From sequence record PZ452611.1: a DNA stretch of 64,000 nucleotides. One strand, given 5' to 3'. A model generated the notes under the pieces. It was not told the DNA's origin, did no database searches, and worked only from the letters and a program-made list of their open reading frames with translations. Shown here piece by piece: positions 9,992 to 63,895 of the stretch (within the stretch, counting starts at the first letter, position 1; each line of letters opens with the position of its first letter). Both the position numbers and the translations under genes were made by a program. This DNA is from a phage.

Positions 9992-10586
9992 GAGGTGCAT
10001 CAAGTGCGGGGAGGTGAAAGACCTCTCCGAGTTCTACAAACACCAAAAGATGTCTGACGGTCATCTTAATAAGTGCAAAGAGTGTTGCAAGAAGGCCAGT
10101 AGGGAGGCTGACCAATTTTCCTACGACTCTTCAGAAAAAGGTGTAATACGCGTGCTGTACAAGGCTCAAAAGTGCAACAGCAAGCAAAGAGGTCACCCGC
10201 CTCCGACTTACACCAAAAAAGAGTTTAAGGAGTGGCTATACCTAAACGGTTACAAAGAGTTGTATGATCAATGGGTAGCCAGCGGATACGACAAAAGGAA
10301 AAAGCCTTCTTGTGATAGGATAGATGATTTCAAAGGGTACTCTTTTGATAATATCCGTTTAACTACCTGGGGAGAAAATAAAGACAAGCAGACGGAGGAT
10401 ATTCTGTTGCATAGAAGCACCAGCGGTAGACGGTGTAAAAATGTAAGGAGACTGGACATGAATGGCAACGTTCTTAAAGAATGGGTATCCCACAATTCTT
10501 GTAGAAGAGAAACCGGAATATGTGTTGATTACTACATTCATGAAAAAATTCCAGCTCCCGATGGATACCTCTATGAATACTTTTAG
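9963..10586 (+). CDS. putative HNH-family (homing) endonuclease-like protein, possibly degenerate
   Basis: N-terminal zinc finger [19 protein letters not shown]...[10 protein letters not shown]; C-terminal [20 protein letters not shown] resembles HNH_3-type motif but lacks the His; overlaps 3' end of SSB-like gene. Confidence 0.4.
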
Positions 10587-10648
10587 CACCTAACTGACAT
10601 AGCCCTGCCCGAAAGGGTGGGGCATTTTTGTATAAGGAGATCTGAAAA

Positions 10649-11065
10649 ATGACATTAGAAGATATCATTGTTAAACCTGAGAACTATGACCAATACAACC
10701 TGTCAACTCAATCTGTAGACCTCGGATGCGCCACAGTCAGTGCATGGCTGGTTAACGGAAAAGAGCTTGACGAGTGCCTGGAAGCACACATGTCGGTGAA
10801 TAAATTTCTTGATGAAAATACCCACTGGCTAGAGGGTGCAGGAGTATATGCTTCATGGTTGGAGAGTATGGGATTCGACTACCAATCTGAAGAGGGGTGG
10901 TGGAGCTATTTAGCTATCTGCCCAGAGACGCTGCAATGCTTCATGAAATATTCTGAAGATTTGGAGTACCGGGCGGTGGTTGATAGTGCCATTGCCCGTT
11001 ATAGCCGTAAACCTTTTTCCCACGACATTAAAACTGTGGAAGAGTTTGTTGAAGTTTTCTGTTGA
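10649..11065 (+). CDS. hypothetical protein
   Basis: RBS TAAGGAGA; 138 aa. Confidence 0.45.
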   Translation: MTLEDIIVKPENYDQYNLSTQSVDLGCATVSAWLVNGKELDECLEAHMSVNKFLDENTHWLEGAGVYASWLESMGFDYQSEEGWWSYLAICPETLQCFMKYSEDLEYRAVVDSAIARYSRKPFSHDIKTVEEFVEVFC

Positions 11066-11161
11066 CACAGGTTGAAAGGTGTGCAATTATAACTTCATAG
11101 AACGGGAGGACGTGATGAACGAAGAAAACTGGGATGTATAACTAACAGGAGGCCACTGCCC

Positions 11162-11359
11162 ATGATTTATCGAATCCGTGTAAGAGAAGATGCACCAGGC
11201 TGTTACTTTGACTGGCGTGGGTGGTGGTTTCTCCACCCGATGGATGGACTCACAGATAGAATGCTGGATGCTGCCCTTTATACAGATACCGACATAGAAT
11301 ATAATCTCTATCTGAAGGACGGTATAGATAACGGTCTATTTGAAGCAATTCCTGTGTAA
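11162..11359 (+). CDS. hypothetical protein
   Basis: RBS AGGAGG; promoter-like TTGACA at 11062. Confidence 0.45.
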   Translation: MIYRIRVREDAPGCYFDWRGWWFLHPMDGLTDRMLDAALYTDTDIEYNLYLKDGIDNGLFEAIPV

Positions 11360-11427
11360 GAGACTGTGATAGCCATGTTTTATGATCTTCCTGTAGCACC
11401 ACCACCTGTTGAACCTGGAGAACTAAG

Positions 11428-11853
11428 ATGATCTATGAAATTCCAAAACTGATTCGCGACGATGCCCAAAACGCCCACACCTTTATCATGGGCAAGCGCA
11501 TGGATATTATTTGTCATAAAGATTTCTGGGAAAGTAGTTACTTCACAGAGTATTTTGGTAAACTGGACAATGGTCTGCTGATCCAGTTCTACACCGACGA
11601 GGAAAACAATATCTGCTGGGAGTTCGAAACTGAAGATATCCATAAACTTCTCACCTTCCTCGGTATTAAGGTTGAGGCCAAGTTTGAAGAAGGTGAGTGC
11701 GACGATTGTGGATTCTACGAGGTAACAGATTTCTATCTTCCGAGTGGTGAGAACCTTTACTATGAAAGCCACTTCGGTAACTCCAATATGCCACAGTGCT
11801 GGACTGAGTTTTTTGAAATTGCGGAAGAGGAGCTGGCATACCGTGATTATTGA
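11428..11853 (+). CDS. hypothetical protein
   Basis: RBS GGAGAA; Cys-containing (CDDCG) 141 aa. Confidence 0.45.
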   Translation: MIYEIPKLIRDDAQNAHTFIMGKRMDIICHKDFWESSYFTEYFGKLDNGLLIQFYTDEENNICWEFETEDIHKLLTFLGIKVEAKFEEGECDDCGFYEVTDFYLPSGENLYYESHFGNSNMPQCWTEFFEIAEEELAYRDY

Positions 11854-12301
11854 TACTGTAGAGGGAGATCTAATCTCTCTTTTCAAGAAAGGGTCGGGCC
11901 ACATGATCCACGGTTGTAACTGCTTTCACACAATGGGTGCAGGCATAGCGAAAGATATTGCCCGTGAGTTCCCTCAAGCACTGGCAGCCGACAAAGAGAC
12001 TGCCTATGGTAATCTGGACAAGCTGGGTATGTTTTCTTGTTGGGAGCATTTTGCCAAGAACAGGGTCGTATATGGAATCAACCTGTATACCCAGTTCTAC
12101 CCAGGGCCCAATGCTGAATACTTCTCAATAATGAAAGGTTTTGAGCGAGTCAACGAGGTATTCAAAGGTGTGTCATTGCCGTTCTACATTCCTAAAATTG
12201 GATGCGGTATTGGCGGTCTAAAGTGGGAACATGTAGAAGATGTAATTAATCTTGCAACCACAGATATTGATGTGGTTGTAGTAGAGTACAAAAAGTGTTG
12301 A
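11843..12301 (+). CDS. macro-domain-like protein (ADP-ribose binding/processing family)
   Basis: GDL...HGCNCFHTMGAGIAKDIAREFPQ motif typical of one macro-domain subgroup; probable GTG start 11843 after GAGGAG (start uncertain; longest ORF from 11744). Confidence 0.5.
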   Translation: MIIDTVEGDLISLFKKGSGHMIHGCNCFHTMGAGIAKDIAREFPQALAADKETAYGNLDKLGMFSCWEHFAKNRVVYGINLYTQFYPGPNAEYFSIMKGFERVNEVFKGVSLPFYIPKIGCGIGGLKWEHVEDVINLATTDIDVVVVEYKKC

Positions 12302-12355
12302 CGACCATCTTCTGAGGTGATATAGTTTCCACAACAACTAAGAGAGGAGAGCACT

Positions 12356-12526
12356 GTGGAGACTAAAATCTTAATTCTTGCTGTGGTAGATACAACCGAA
12401 GGAGCTATATTCGAATCTGCAGGAGGGTATTTCTACCTACCCTACGGAAAAAGAACTGCCGAACCGGGTAAAGATTCAATCATCAAAGTGTTCCCGTGTG
12501 CTTTCTGGCTGGAGATTCTGGCATGA
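12356..12526 (+). CDS. hypothetical small protein
   Basis: GTG after AGAGAGGAGAG; 56 aa (below track cutoff); ATGA overlap with next gene; downstream of promoter 12298-12326. Confidence 0.3.
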   Translation: METKILILAVVDTTEGAIFESAGGYFYLPYGKRTAEPGKDSIIKVFPCAFWLEILA

Positions 12527-12735
12527 AAACCTGCATGTGTGTGTCCACGCAATCGGATAATCAAGGGCTGTTTGAAGAATATCCAGTAATAGATGGGCCT
12601 AGCATATCCTTGTGCGACTTCCTGACTGGGACACGTGGTGGCTGTACAAAAGTGATGAATATTCAGGCTATTACTTTGCAAAAACATTTACCGGAGAGTT
12701 GGTATTTGTTCTGGAGGACTGAGGAGGGCTTATGA
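12523..12735 (+). CDS. hypothetical protein
   Basis: ATG overlapping upstream stop; Cys-rich N-terminus. Confidence 0.35.
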   Translation: MKTCMCVSTQSDNQGLFEEYPVIDGPSISLCDFLTGTRGGCTKVMNIQAITLQKHLPESWYLFWRTEEGL

Positions 12736-12926
12736 GAAACAAGAAAGAACTTTACTCTGGCGAGTGGATCAACGATCAACAGATTGGAGAGGTAACCTGC
12801 TTCCGATGTTTTACCAGGTACAATATTAAAACTGCACCAAAAAGTGTTCCAAAGACTGATGGTTATTACATAAAAGAACCTTATTGCCCAAAATGTAAAT
12901 GCCGATTATATTGGAGTAACCTGTAA
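12732..12926 (+). CDS. small zinc-ribbon protein
   Basis: CxxC...CxxC (CFRCF...CPKCKC); ATGA overlap. Confidence 0.4.
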   Translation: MRNKKELYSGEWINDQQIGEVTCFRCFTRYNIKTAPKSVPKTDGYYIKEPYCPKCKCRLYWSNL

Positions 12927-12930
12927 AAGA

Positions 12931-12958
12931 TTGACATCTGAAAACTGCAGTGTATAAT
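12931..12958 (+). promoter_or_regulatory. sigma70-like promoter
   Basis: TTGACA-16-TGTATAAT. Confidence 0.55.
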
Positions 12959-12989
12959 ATATGCATAAACTAACAGAGAGTGATGTATT

Positions 12990-13181
12990 ATGGTAATTTT
13001 TAACCGGGATGGTATCATAGTTAGACAGCACCCGTTCCTTGAATACTATCAAATTGAGCAATGGTGCTACGGGGATTGCAGTCACTCCTATGGGCAAAGT
13101 TGGGGATATCGTACAGTTTTTGAATCCACAGACCTTGACAAAGTAAGACAGAAAGTTTTAGAACTTATTAACAACAAGTGA
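12990..13181 (+). CDS. hypothetical protein
   Basis: downstream of strong promoter 12931-12958. Confidence 0.4.
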   Translation: MVIFNRDGIIVRQHPFLEYYQIEQWCYGDCSHSYGQSWGYRTVFESTDLDKVRQKVLELINNK

Positions 13182-13188
13182 GTATGAT

Positions 13189-13521
13189 ATGGTAACATTA
13201 GAAAGACGTAAAGCTATCGCCGCCACACTGGCAGACATCTTTTGGGAGTGCAATTTAAAAGATACTAGATATTGTGGCGCATCTGTAGATGCATTGTTCC
13301 CACGGCCCACTATTGTTGCAATGGGGAACCTGTTAAACGTAGTGTATGGAGCGTGGGACAAAGAAGGTGGATTTTATATCTGGCAACCTGACTACGGGAC
13401 CTGGAAAGAGGTAAGGGGTGCGGATGACTTTGGGCCTGCAGTTGCTAAGATGGATGGCTGGGAAATCTATGTTGGAAACGACATGAAGCTGAAGGGCGAG
13501 ATTGTTTACTGGTTACCTTAA
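13189..13521 (+). CDS. hypothetical protein
   Basis: RBS GTGAG; 110 aa. Confidence 0.4.
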   Translation: MVTLERRKAIAATLADIFWECNLKDTRYCGASVDALFPRPTIVAMGNLLNVVYGAWDKEGGFYIWQPDYGTWKEVRGADDFGPAVAKMDGWEIYVGNDMKLKGEIVYWLP

Positions 13522-25349: not shown

Positions 25350-25367
25350 TTTCTTAACTAAACTATC

Positions 25368-25395
25368 AGGGGCTTTAAAAGGCCCCTTTCTTTTG
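25368..25395 (+). terminator. rho-independent terminator ending plus-strand arm
   Basis: AGGGGC-tttaaaag-GCCCCT then TTCTTTTG. Confidence 0.55.
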
Positions 25396-26347
25396 TCTGT
25401 ATTTCTCCTACCACAAACGGCCCAGCCTGGCAAGTGGAATAATTGACTAGCCAGCAATTACCAACACTGTACAAATATACATATAAAATAACTATTGCAT
25501 AATCTTTCATCTTGTGGTAGCAGGGCCATTTTTACACGTTTTCCTTCCAAAATTGCACGTAATGCAGCTATTGCATAAAATTTAACCTGATGCACATCTT
25601 CAATAGCTTGTCAACAACTAAAAATCTTTATAAGTCATACACTTACATAACCACAAAAGCGTGTTCTACGTGAAAAATCGAGTATAACTATAGCCGCCAG
25701 ATCTCAGAATTTACGTACGCTCACCATTCTATAGTCTGCTAAGTATTTATTCCAACCATAGAATAACAGAATAGTCAATACCTGCATAAAATAATTATTC
25801 GTGTAAACTGCATAACATAAATCAGCCGGGGTGTCAACATTTTTCGTAAACGGCTCGAAATTATCACTGTGAGCTATCATAAACAGAGAAATCTTTAGTC
25901 GTCTAATGTTTACTGTACGTTACTATACTAACTGGAATCATTAGATGACTAATAAAAAGATAAGAAATCATTAACAATGCAATTGTTTTATTCATAACAA
26001 TAAGGCAACTATGCAAACGAATGGCATGGCGCGACGGAGTCGCGACATAATATAAAAGCAGTAACCATCACCCCCGTGATAGTTTGTCTGCAAACTATTA
26101 ATCAGATCATAGTTGCCTTGTATTTAGTTAATCATGACATAAACTCAGGCATAGCCTTCGTCTCGAGGATGTTAACAAGCAAGGCAACTATAGATCTTCT
26201 AATAGTTGCCCTGCTTTTATATTATGTCATAGAAACACCCGAAGGGGTGACCAAAGGTCACCTGGCATAGCCAGTGAAATATTGTAAACAAGTTAATTAT
26301 TATCATGCAAACGAATGGCATGGCTTATCATCTCTGTGTAAATAGTT

Positions 26348-26511
26348 TGTTTGTAAACAGTTTATACGTGAACAGTTAGCTGTGTAAACTATCAGGCATG
26401 TAAGCTATTGAGCATGTAAACAGTAAAGGTCGTGAACAGTAAGCGAGCGAATAGTAATGGCGTGAACAATGACAGCGTAAACAGTCAGGCATGTCAATTA
26501 TGTTCAGTGTG
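26348..26511. repeat. tandem array of 11 units, 15-16 bp period, consensus n6-GTRAACAGT (iteron-like)
   Basis: 9-mers start at 26348, 26363, 26378, 26394, 26410, 26426, 26442, 26457, 26472, 26487, 26503. Confidence 0.7.
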
Positions 26512-27953
26512 TCACCATTATGTCATATTGTGTCAGACAAGTTTTTCTCCTCTTTGTCAAGTGCTGCATGAAAAATTTACAATCTGGTATGGTAGCATTT
26601 TTGCGGCCCTGTTTACATTCAGTACTGTATGTATAAGCCTTGTTGTGTGGGCGCTTAGACGTCTAGACGGTTGGAAGTCTGCAGGTCAATATCTAATCTA
26701 TTGGTTGCTAACTATATCCCACACAAATAGTAAGAAATGCAATTGTTATATGCGTAAACTGTAACTCATGTTATCAATCCCTGTATGGATCGCCAGTGGT
26801 GCGCATAATAGGTATTATGTTAAATTGCCAGTAATGATAACTATTCTCACAGTGATAGGTATTCTCATTCAACCCCACAAGATAGGTTGCAAATGTTGTG
26901 CCACTGTGTGAACGGCCTCGCCTATTAATTTGCCTCACTGCCTCGATATTTGAGAATTATTATAAGAATGAGAAGTATTCCCATTTCGTCCGCCTGGCAG
27001 CACTCCTGTAGGTCAGGTCAAAATCGGGAGAGAACTGGACCTGTTCAGATATTTCTGGCTGGCTCTTCAGGTCTGTGTGGGAAAAGCCGACCCCTCCGGC
27101 GGCGGGGAGGGGGTCAATTAAAAAATTTACGGGGCATATGAAGCGCTCTTCAGGTAAGGCATGTATTATGGGATGAAACCCTCTTCAGGAAATGATATTT
27201 GTGGGTGTGATATTTGCTGGAAAGCTAGATATGACTGGACTCCTGGCGGGGCAGGGGTAGTACAGACAGGGGAAATATGGGGGATGTAGTTGGGTAAATT
27301 GATCAGGCAGGTAGAGTATGGAATATGTTACGAGTATGTTAAATATGGAGGGTGAATATCTGCAGGATTTGTGTGTAAAATCAAAGACTTAAGTGGTGTT
27401 GTGGTATTTTCTATAAATAATTCAAGTTTAATAGGTGATATTTGTCCCTATCCACTTTGTGTGGTAAACAGATTCAGATGAGATTGGTTTACGAGTGTAT
27501 ACATAATATACAAATTAAAGATACAAGAAACCCCCCTCCCCCTTCGGCTACCATTCACCTTTTCCTCTGACTGGTACTTAAACACTTATTCAGACTCTTC
27601 AGGTTATCACCCATATATCATATGGCAGTGACTGGTGTCCTCCGGCCCCTCTTTCGTCACCCGTCCGCTTCGCCATGCTAATGCCATAGCCAATGGTTCG
27701 GTTGTTCACCCTGTTCACTCAGGTGTATCTCCATACCCCTTCAAACCGAAGAGAACAGAAAACCCGAATTACTCGGTAAAAGAAAAGAGAAGAACTTAAT
27801 TTTATCAGGATAAGCAAGAATGTCAAGGCATGACTGCTCACTAAACAAGCAAACAGTCATGTGTGGGAGGTAAGTGATTGTGGTGGTAGGAAATTTAGTT
27901 GAAAGATGTGTTATAGGTGCTCCCAGCACTTTAGCCGGGTAGCTAATTGTGTG

Positions 27954-28169
27954 TCAGTCCAGCGGTTCATCCTCTACTTCACTGAAATCAATGTTCATGG
28001 TCTCTTCCCAACCATCGATCTCAGCACAAGAGTGAAGTTCTTTAGGGTTTACTCCCAAAGCCTCAGCAACAGAGTCTATATTTAACACCTCTGGCAGGTA
28101 TGATTCATCGAATTCAAGGTAAATCAGGCCACGAGTGTTGTCAGCCCCACCAAATATTTCTATCTTCAT
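27954..28169 (-). CDS. hypothetical protein
   Basis: ATG (MKIEIFGG) 5 nt after GAGGAG; track ORF trimmed. Confidence 0.4.
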   Translation of the reverse strand: MKIEIFGGADNTRGLIYLEFDESYLPEVLNIDSVAEALGVNPKELHSCAEIDGWEETMNIDFSEVEDEPLD

Positions 28170-62406: not shown

Positions 62407-63120
62407 TTAAATATACTCTGTTACATCCTTGAAGCTCGAAGGCTTCATGATCTTACCTTTACTGTCAAGGAATATGATAACTTTATTACCGTTGTAGAAT
62501 TCTTCCTTGGCAACAAAACCTTCATATCGACCATCAAAGCGTCGTTCAAGATCTTTAATCTCCAACTCGATTAGTTGTTCAGCAGGCATATCTGCACTGG
62601 CACCGTGTGAATACCGTAGATGGTTGACCCGTGCAAACTTGCTGTCATTCGATTTGAGAACCTTACGCATCATCCCGCACACATCGCCGCGAAGCTGGAA
62701 CAGCAAAGCTGTTGACAACTCTGCTAAGCGGTAAGCAGACGCTCTTTGCTTAGAGGTGTTTTTCGCAGCGATCAGTGTATCATAGAACTCGCCGATCTTG
62801 AACTTAAGACCTCGCGGATTATCAAACAGGTTTGACCACTTTTCGTGATTATCATTAACAAGATAAGCGGCATAACTTGTGACAACGTGAAGATCGCAGG
62901 CCTCTTTTAGCAGGTGATCTCCACCATCACCTTTCTCCAGCTCTTCCAAAACCTCATTGAACTCTTCCTCAATGAAGCTAAGCTGTAATTCGAATGGTGT
63001 GTATGATTTTTTCACTTTAGCTGCCACACGGTTCCAGTTTTCCACCCAATTGGCAGACCAAAGGTAGTTTTCAGGCTGAGACAGTTTTTCCAGGTTGTCG
63101 ATCAGTTTAGTATTCAGCAT
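62407..63120 (-). CDS. MazG-like nucleotide pyrophosphohydrolase domain protein
   Basis: FIEEEFNEVLEELEKGD...LLKEACDLHVV resembles MazG E..E..E...D motif. Confidence 0.4.
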   Translation of the reverse strand: MLNTKLIDNLEKLSQPENYLWSANWVENWNRVAAKVKKSYTPFELQLSFIEEEFNEVLEELEKGDGGDHLLKEACDLHVVTSYAAYLVNDNHEKWSNLFDNPRGLKFKIGEFYDTLIAAKNTSKQRASAYRLAELSTALLFQLRGDVCGMMRKVLKSNDSKFARVNHLRYSHGASADMPAEQLIELEIKDLERRFDGRYEGFVAKEEFYNGNKVIIFLDSKGKIMKPSSFKDVTEYI

Positions 63121-63133
63121 TAAAGGTCTCCTT

Positions 63134-63895
63134 TTAAAGTTCCATAAAGTTTTCTACAGTTTCAATAAATGCTTTATCAGAGAAAGCGTCAACAGCACCG
63201 TTAAACCATACAGGGATCCCGCGATCCTCATATTGATAAAGGTCGCTACGTGAAATGCCACTTCCATCTGCACTCTGCGAATCATACTTGTTTACAATCA
63301 GCAGTTTTGTTCCTTTACAAGTAGCAGGAAACAATTCCCAGTTAAAATTAATAACTGTGTTAGAACAACCCACTAGGATCACCATATCATTGCTGGTGAG
63401 AGATGTCAACAGGTCATACATGTCTGTATACTTAGGAGCAACCTCGCCGAAGAACACTACATTGGGCTTAACCCAGGTATACTTGCCTGTATCTACCTCC
63501 GTGTATCCGATATTTTTAATTACATCATTACCTTCAGCATCTTCGTAGGTGATTTCAGGCAAATACCCGTGGACATGTAAAATATCTTCATGTTTTACAC
63601 CAGCACGCTCCAGCAAATCATCTACATTGGTGGTAAGGTTGATCACACGACCAGACCAGCGGGAATACCACTCAGCGATCCGAAGATGTGCAAGGTTAGG
63701 ATCAACACTGCCCAGAGCTACACGACGTGCATTGTAAAAGTCATGCACCTTATAGTAGTTCTTGGCAAAGGTGTGGATGTTGCACACCTCATCGATGCTG
63801 AAATTCTCCCACATTGCAGTGCTACCAGATCGGAAGGTGGGAATACCAGATTCTGCGCTCAAACCAGCACCAGAAATAACAATAAGTCGTCGCAT
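63134..63895 (-). CDS. Sir2-family NAD-dependent deacylase/ADP-ribosyltransferase-like protein
   Basis: GAGLSAESGIPTFR, TTNVDDLLERAG, HG, VVFFGE, VGCSNTV motifs; no Zn-ribbon cysteines. Confidence 0.7.
   Translation of the reverse strand: MRRLIVISGAGLSAESGIPTFRSGSTAMWENFSIDEVCNIHTFAKNYYKVHDFYNARRVALGSVDPNLAHLRIAEWYSRWSGRVINLTTNVDDLLERAGVKHEDILHVHGYLPEITYEDAEGNDVIKNIGYTEVDTGKYTWVKPNVVFFGEVAPKYTDMYDLLTSLTSNDMVILVGCSNTVINFNWELFPATCKGTKLLIVNKYDSQSADGSGISRSDLYQYEDRGIPVWFNGAVDAFSDKAFIETVENFMEL

Follow-up and report, generated by a model that had tools for sequence, protein, structure and literature searches.

A stand-alone macrodomain protein of phage rV5, related to T4 Tk.4, as a probable counter to the DarTG2 defence

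In this study, a 64,000-nucleotide stretch of phage DNA (sequence record PZ452611.1, referred to here as the window) was investigated with regard to its macrodomain gene, rv5_gp204, and to two genes near its far end, a Sir2-family gene and a MazG-like gene, which an earlier sequence-only reading had joined to it in one system of nicotinamide adenine dinucleotide (NAD) and adenosine diphosphate ribose (ADP-ribose) signalling. In reverse complement, the window corresponds to NC_011041 67972-131971; over its positions 10500-13500 it matches Escherichia coli O157 typing phage 5 with 100% and phage rV5 (Vequintavirus) with 99.9% identity. Its genes form two convergent arms, one on the + strand that spans 1 to about 25.3 kb and one on the - strand that spans about 28 to 64 kb. 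The macro gene lies in the first of these, and the gene and the motifs of its product are as follows.

11843-12301, + strand: macro gene rv5_gp204, 'tk.4', 152 amino acids, GTG start, 11-nt overlap with the upstream open reading frame (ORF) gp205.
11909-11944, + strand: first ADP-ribose-binding loop, H23-G-C-N26-C-F-H-T-M-G32-A-G34, placed by alignments, with N26 invariant.
12080-12094, + strand: N80-L-Y-T-Q84 motif, placed by MAFFT and hhalign, with Q84 in the catalytic-Lys column.
12191-12217, + strand: Gly-rich phosphate-binding loop, P117-K-I-G-C-G-I-G-G125, placed by alignments.

We observed that rv5_gp204 consists of a macrodomain alone, which belongs to the TARG1/DarG/SCO6735 (ALC1-like) class and falls within the T4 Tk.4 (AdfM) family. 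The macro call made earlier was borne out by classification with hidden Markov models: the protein scored 25.9 bits against Pfam Macro (PF01661; cut-off 22, expectation value (E) 1e-5), its best matches in NCBIfam (E 6e-12, residues 5-147) and in PADLOC (E 8.6e-13) were both DarG, which is the only defence-related or antitoxin model that it matched in these two collections, and PHROG 335 was matched at E 4e-60. The AlphaFold2 model, made from an input alignment without the T4 sequence, reached a predicted local distance difference test (pLDDT) score of 96.5 and displays the three-layer alpha/beta/alpha fold of macrodomains. Searched with Foldseek against the PDB, it gave 182 matches at E <= 1e-3, of which the listed top 50 are either natural macrodomains or engineered proteins with a macrodomain scaffold; the top 24 comprise SCO6735, DarG, Poa1p, TARG1 and designed hydrolases on a related scaffold, with TARG1, Poa1p and DarG at E 2e-10 to 1e-8 and SCO6735 also among the closest folds. 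By sequence, the best PDB match was SCO6735 (5e3b), followed by Mycobacterium tuberculosis DarG, with Poa1p and TARG1 also found, and profile comparison in hhalign gave a probability of 98.3% to SCO6735 and 98.2% to DarG. The nearest relatives in sequence and fold are thus of the TARG1/DarG/SCO6735 class and not of the MacroD, PARG or viral Mac1 types. The translation contains 'GDL...HGCNCFHTMGAGIA'. The best BFVD match of the model was a Marseillevirus 'SNF2 subfamily protein' of 302 amino acids, whose macro domain is 40% identical with a template modelling (TM) score of 0.93; a giant eukaryotic virus thus has a near relative of these phage macro proteins.

The start at GTG-11843 was accepted because an AGGAG-like site lies about 10 nt upstream, RefSeq gives the identical start, the homologues start with 'MI' in the same alignment column, and a longer ORF from GTG-11744, which was rejected as the macro gene, would run into the upstream gene. 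Public records label the protein 'tk.4: phosphatase', 'macro domain protein' or 'Poa1p-like', with 'A1pp phosphatase' also occurring in the family, and the gene name tk.4 has already been given to it in RefSeq.

Comparatively, DarG possesses a C-terminal DarT-binding domain and an adjoining darT gene, whereas the rV5 protein has neither. Against the 338-position NCBIfam DarG model it aligned with positions 3-144 only (45.4 bits, cut-off 250), and no C-terminal DarT-binding domain was detected in this comparison of the 152-residue protein. No darT neighbour of the gene was found, and Pfam scans of the 90 further window ORFs (at least 75 amino acids) detected no DarT, NADAR, ART, Nudix or NAMPT domain.

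Residue equivalences were obtained from three alignments (MAFFT with references, L-INS-i on 122 sequences, and hhalign), in which the TARG1 reference sequence is an exact match to PDB 2LGR. Across 117 homologues, G24, N26, C27, G34, D50, N80, Y82, T83, Q84, P117, G120 and G122 are 100% invariant. N26 corresponds to N27 of SCO6735 and N22 of DarG, H23 corresponds to H24 of SCO6735, and the column of Q84 is occupied by the catalytic Lys of DarG (K80) and TARG1 (K84) and by the essential Gln85 of SCO6735. This Lys is absent from rv5_gp204, from T4 Tk.4 and from all 117 of the 117 homologues, which harbor Gln instead. Because Q84 falls in the Lys column by all three alignment methods, the rV5 and T4 proteins are, on these alignments, not of the Lys type seen in DarG, TARG1 and PhiKZ AdfM, and have a Gln-type site as in SCO6735. 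The Lys84/Asp125 dyad of TARG1 is represented by Gln84/Gly124 in rv5_gp204, and the Gly at the Asp125 position is found in DarG and SCO6735 as well.

The resemblance to SCO6735 (PDB 5E3B, Streptomyces coelicolor) covers Q84, N26, H23 and the Gly-rich loop, and this protein too is an orphan macrodomain, with no DarT-binding domain and neither of the two TARG1 dyad residues. It differs in that identity is about 27%, in its longer mobile loop and its K34 and K89, which are not conserved in rV5, and in being encoded by a bacterial chromosomal gene tied to the DNA-damage response and antibiotic production and not to phage counter-defence. On DNA, SCO6735 removes thymidine-linked ADP-ribose more rapidly than DarG or TARG1 do; it loses its activity in the mutants Q85A, Q85E and N27S, and it gives Streptomyces protection from DarT (PMC9411070). 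The DarG2 macrodomain (Thermus aquaticus and M. tuberculosis; PDB 5M31, 5M3E, 5M3I; Foldseek E 2e-9, hhalign 98.2%) and PhiKZ gp104 share with the rV5 protein the conserved Asn (DarG N22, rV5 N26), the G-x-G-x-G-G loop and an expected substrate, DarT2-modified thymidine, but DarG K80 and PhiKZ AdfM K78 are Lys where rV5 has Gln. PhiKZ AdfM (gp104), a chimallivirus DarG2-like macrodomain with N23 and K78 in its active site and with Asn mutant data available, removes DarT2-made ADP-ribose from DNA in vitro (PMC13309987). AdfB of phage ICP1 was set aside as a comparator, as it is not a macrodomain and binds DarT.

The closest functional reference is T4 Tk.4. Homology between it and rv5_gp204 is full-length (39% identity, E 6e-44), and tblastn of the rV5 macro protein on the T4 record gave 99% coverage at E 2e-33. 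Both are stand-alone proteins of similar size (155 amino acids in T4, 152 in rV5) with the HGCNCFHTMG, NLYTQ and P-x-IG-x-G motifs and Gln at the Lys position, whereas they come from Straboviridae and Vequintavirinae, respectively, and the T4 gene stands in the order vs, tk.4, tk.3-tk.1, tk. A HIDEN-SEQ preprint of November 2025 reported a transposon screen on a DarTG2 host in which tk.4 alone among the T4 genes was significantly depleted; it also found a clean T4 tk.4 knockout to be DarTG2-sensitive and named the gene adfM (10.1101/2025.11.20.689424). DarTG systems are present in E. coli strains according to PMC7003065.

Taken together, we consider it likely that rv5_gp204 strips ADP-ribose from phage DNA and thereby defeats DarTG2. 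We infer this activity of the rV5 protein from the family, fold and residue equivalence observed here, together with T4 genetics and SCO6735 and PhiKZ biochemistry that come from relatives. In a DarTG2-carrying E. coli, infection would be sensed and DarT2 would block replication by ADP-ribosylating thymidines of single-stranded phage DNA; rv5_gp204, an orphan copy of the enzymatic half of DarG without the DarT-binding domain, would then bind the ADP-ribose between its two Gly-rich loops and hydrolyse the thymidine-ribose bond, restoring a replicable template. The chemistry is probably lysine-free, as proposed for SCO6735, in that Asn26 would hold Gln84, Gln84 would position the substrate and an activated water would attack. 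With an invariant Gln in the T4/rV5-type AdfM proteins and a Lys in DarG2 and the chimallivirus AdfM, there would be two mechanistic flavours of phage anti-DarT2 macrodomains, and phages would have recruited two mechanistically different enzymes, a Lys-type in chimalliviruses and a Gln-type in T4-like and rV5-like phages. The gene and domain annotation of rV5, the function of the T4 homologue (2025 preprint) and the Sir2/MazG neighbourhood (2022) are already known; the invariant Gln of the T4/rV5-type AdfM family, as in SCO6735, is a point that might be useful to specialists. The general idea of the sequence-only reading, an action of the macro protein against a host defence that ADP-ribosylates, agrees well with the requirement of T4 Tk.4/AdfM for growth on DarTG2 hosts.

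Several points weigh against an action on DarT2-modified DNA. The experiments were done on relatives only, and the preprint's screens of Bas54, a member of the Vequintavirinae, did not include DarTG2; the T4 evidence is genetic and comes from that preprint, with the T4 mechanism deduced. Identity is just 39% to T4 Tk.4 and 24-27% to SCO6735 and DarG, and the DNA-positioning K34 and K89 of SCO6735 are not conserved, their rV5 counterparts being A33 and G88. The class is also promiscuous: TARG1 and SCO6735 de-modify proteins too, TARG1 has O-acyl-ADP-ribose deacylase activity as well, and Poa1p removes the phosphate from ADP-ribose-1''-phosphate, and therefore the substrate is not fixed by fold and motifs. 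Furthermore, a chromosomal bacterial homologue (Pelagimonas) has no DarT neighbour and stands alone among unrelated genes. Another non-phage homologue (P0118), on a large phage-like contig, has no DarT neighbour either, so the surroundings of these two genes tell little about function.

The two genes at the other end of the window are as follows.

62407-63120, - strand: rv5_gp081, MazG/HisE-superfamily all-alpha nucleoside triphosphate (NTP) pyrophosphohydrolase-like protein, assigned at family level by Pfam and PHROG.
62890-62973, - strand: EEExxExxEE...ExxD motif of rv5_gp081 (residues 50-77), invariant among homologues.
63134-63895, - strand: rv5_gp080, Sir2, CobB-like class III, Pfam SIR2 98.2 bits.

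The Sir2 call made from the letters alone was upheld by its Pfam score and by the presence of the NAD-binding GAGLS (9-13) and the catalytic H109, next to FYNARR (53-58, the class III Y-x-x-R acyl-recognition motif) and TTNVD (88-92). The closest solved relative of rv5_gp080 is E. coli CobB, and SIRT5 is also close, while every score against the NCBIfam CobB equivalogs was under the cut-off and the defence-type Sir2 models of PADLOC gave no match. No four-Cys zinc ribbon is found in rv5_gp080, whose Cys residues are at 38, 177 and 193 only, with none within 110-150; the T5 Sir2, 58% identical, likewise lacks Cys in the zinc-ribbon segment, and this shared loss therefore does not represent a sequencing artefact.

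The MazG-like call held at the level of the superfamily but not for the single protein, for which Pfam PRA-PH stayed sub-threshold (E 0.084). PRA-PH was matched by 17 of the 17 family members (best 4.8e-6) and MazG by 15 of them, and rv5_gp081 matched PHROG 671 'nucleotide pyrophosphohydrolase' at E 5e-22. Its AlphaFold2 model is of low confidence (pLDDT 74, one good model out of five); with it, Foldseek against the PDB gave nothing significant, the best being dimeric dUTPases at E about 1, and the PDB profile search also gave nothing significant. In the GenBank records of phages navn, ime, pangalan and nimi the MazG-like ORF is labelled 'putative Sir2-like protein', which looks like an annotation shifted by one gene.

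We found no sign that the macro gene works with the distant Sir2 and MazG-like genes. It lies at 11.8 kb on the + strand and Sir2 at 63.1 kb on the - strand, about 50 kb apart in arms transcribed towards each other, and the arrangement of a SirTM-type sirtuin in an operon with a macro gene was not encountered, the genes not being adjacent in the window. By tblastn, the macro family is distributed in 2836 of 50,697 phage records (about 5.6%), Sir2 in 1022 and the MazG-like protein in 324, and from the first two counts at least 1814 macro-bearing phages lack Sir2. The taxon make-up of the matches was assessed on evenly spaced samples of 60 macro rows and 50 Sir2 rows: a large share of the macro rows came from T4-like genomes, which were absent from the Sir2 rows, whereas T5-like genomes supplied about half of the Sir2 rows and no macro row. 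In T5 st0 1-51,676, tblastn with rV5, T4, SCO6735, DarG and TARG1 queries detected no macro beyond noise (E >= 0.24), and it is on these sampled rows and this search that T5-like phages are taken to lack the gene; T5 is strongly restricted by DarTG2. Sir2 and MazG are themselves far apart in Phapecoctavirus-like genomes. All three genes are core to Vequintavirus, and their co-presence there is lineage inheritance and not evidence of coupling. Across about 120 Vequintavirus genomes the macro protein is found at >=95% identity in 44 records and at 80-90% in 75, and is thus much more divergent than Sir2 (almost all >=90%) and the MazG-like protein (almost all >=95%), as would fit a counter-defence gene that turns over faster, or an early region in which alleles are exchanged.

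The order in the far arm is an RnlA-type RNA ligase, a small ORF, and then Sir2 and MazG directly downstream, with an ATPase and a phosphoesterase divergently encoded just past the right end of the window. Iyer, Burroughs and Aravind described the same neighbourhood in Escherichia phage V5 in 2022 (PMC9503650, section 3.7.3), with the RnlA-like ligase, the small ORF and the divergent ATPase and phosphoesterase, and assigned its sirtuin to a distinct V5-type clade with a KptA-like RNA-repair role, a function that is predicted only, and with no coupled macro gene. Sir2 and MazG form a module separate from the macro system, and with the distance, the opposite strands, the independent distribution and this separate RNA-ligase neighbourhood, the functional link that the sequence-only reading had drawn between the three genes is not supported. 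The Sir2 gave no match to defence-type Sir2 models, nor does anything point to the suggestion of that reading of a counter to NAD depletion. What stands of that reading is its three domain calls and, in its interpretation, the anti-ADP-ribosylation idea, but not the three-gene link. The NADAR protein AdfN is present in some Vequintavirinae (Bas60-62) and was not found in this window by the Pfam scans of its 90 ORFs.

The strongest rival, which we consider unlikely, takes the macro protein for a Poa1p-like phosphatase of ADP-ribose-1''-phosphate, or for an enzyme that otherwise processes soluble ADP-ribose derivatives, cleaning up after the sirtuin RNA-repair module. It would provide a real though indirect connection between macro and Sir2 through the ADP-ribose>p or ADP-ribose-1''-P of a KptA-like module; Poa1p is among the best matches in fold (E 2e-9) and in sequence, several family records carry the 'Poa1p-like' or 'A1pp phosphatase' label, and rV5 has the neighbourhood of RNA ligase, Sir2 and MazG. 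The 2022 survey argues that phage macrodomains mostly act on soluble ADP-ribose derivatives and that the V5-type sirtuin removes RNA 2'-phosphates to yield ADP-ribose>p (PMC9503650). Yet the macro gene is 50 kb from the RNA-repair module on the other strand with neither positional nor phyletic support, this sirtuin clade comes without a coupled macro gene (PMC9503650), and the RNA-repair role of the sirtuin is itself a prediction. T4 has the macro gene and no T4-like genome was among the sampled Sir2 rows, yet the DarTG2 phenotype of Tk.4 is specific; conversely, T5-like phages keep the sirtuin but were absent from the sampled macro rows, and no macro gene was found in T5 st0 1-51,676. Human TARG1/OARD1 and yeast Poa1p are the closest solved folds to the rV5 protein and neither is known as a phage counter-defence; the substrate of Poa1p is a soluble phosphate ester, and TARG1 differs by its Lys84/Asp125 in place of Gln84/Gly124. 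A dual role, in which a Gln-type anti-DarT2 enzyme would also supply the missing ADP-ribose-1''-phosphate clean-up for the sirtuin RNA-repair module and so connect macro and Sir2 indirectly, is given a similarly small chance, and the Gln-type mechanism alone is considerably more likely than the two together.

Equally improbable, in our estimate, is that the macro protein takes ADP-ribose off protein or RNA and not off DNA, the marks being placed by other host transferase defences, such as CmdTAC-like mRNA modification or protein-targeting toxins, or by a phage transferase. Glu/Asp-linked ADP-ribose on protein is also removed by SCO6735 and TARG1 (PMC9411070), and PMC11618068 presents mRNA ADP-ribosylation as a known anti-phage mechanism. 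No transferase domain was detected in the scanned window ORFs, however, SCO6735 strongly favours DNA over protein (PMC9411070), the T4 homologue scored specifically with DarTG2 (10.1101/2025.11.20.689424), and T4 is still robustly restricted by CmdTAC despite its Tk.4.

Less probable again is the proposal of the sequence-only reading that the macro protein hydrolyses O-acyl-ADP-ribose from the phage Sir2 and forms with MazG one NAD/ADP-ribose system, for instance against NAD-depleting defences. The top fold match, TARG1 (OARD1), does deacylate O-acyl-ADP-ribose, the Sir2 retains its catalytic His and the class III Y-x-x-R motif, and all three genes are core to Vequintavirus, but this lineage co-presence is inherited and does not constitute independent evidence, the genes are 50 kb apart on opposite strands with independent phyletic patterns, the top 50 fold matches include no MacroD-type deacetylase, the scans of the 90 other window ORFs gave no NAD-salvage, NADAR, Nudix or ART domain, and the Sir2 matches no defence-type model. 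The least probable reading of all, a non-catalytic binder or sponge of ADP-ribose-derived immune signals or a DarT inhibitor by binding alone, can appeal to catalytically dead SCO6735, which still inhibits DarT by interaction (PMC9411070), and to macrodomains that are readers only, but Asn26 and position 84, catalytically essential in SCO6735/DarG, are invariant in 117 homologues, a pattern expected of an enzyme.

Around the macro gene, the arm consists of small genes with sigma-70-type promoter matches, and its neighbours are small ORFs with no function assigned. The features on the two sides of the gene are as follows.

10602-10623, + strand: strong terminator-like hairpin (9 bp, 7 GC, then a T-run), 3' of the endonuclease gene.
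11062-11090, + strand: promoter-like sigma-70 site, TTGACA-17-AATTAT with TG, downstream of the hairpin, a consensus match only.
11428-11853, + strand: upstream ORF gp205, 141 amino acids, no Pfam match, translationally overlapped with the macro gene (context only).
12931-12958, + strand: perfect (12/12) sigma-70 consensus, annotated P205 in RefSeq.

The site at 11062-11090 is a candidate start of the transcription unit holding the macro gene, and the hairpin together with the two sigma-70 sites may bracket a short transcription unit around it. The third gene downstream of macro, rv5_gp201 (12732-12926, + strand, 64 amino acids), matches Pfam Phage_zn_bind_2 at E 8e-22, and RefSeq notes that it resembles RB49 NP_891661, an accession adjoining that of RB49 Tk.4 (NP_891662), which hints at a pairing of Tk.4 with a zinc-binding protein that recurs in unrelated phages. 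The small ORFs that follow the rV5 macro gene have no relationship to T4 tk.3, tk.2 and tk.1, which belong to other families (DUF7202, DUF7438).

At the junction of the convergent arms, an ORF-poor stretch of about 2.6 kb (25354-27956) was observed, with no tRNA and no Rfam match. Iteron-like direct repeats of GTAAAC-containing units at 16-nt spacing lie at 26368-26424, with further copies in the same stretch, and 12 of the 46 GTAAAC sites of the window fall in 25803-27492. The equivalent intergenic region of Bas54 (Vequintavirinae) shows no tolerated transposon insertions in the HIDEN-SEQ preprint (10.1101/2025.11.20.689424), and the stretch is a candidate replication origin or other essential cis element. 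About 16-25 'Campylobacter phage' records (MG0656xx) that give C. jejuni as host share 97-100% identity with rV5-like coliphage sequence, which suggests mis-assigned hosts or coliphage contamination.

Our results correct the legacy 'phosphatase' annotation of rv5_gp204 as well as the unsupported idea of an NAD-centred system of macro, Sir2 and MazG. The strictly conserved Gln that replaces the Lys of DarG and TARG1 offers a concrete, testable point on the catalysis of DNA de-ADP-ribosylation. If the proposed action on DarT2-modified DNA is true, the AdfM family is extended beyond the T-even phages and the Vequintavirinae, rV5-like phages of broad host range that serve in O157 strain typing, carry a ready-made counter to DarTG2, which would help to predict the E. 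coli strains that they can infect.

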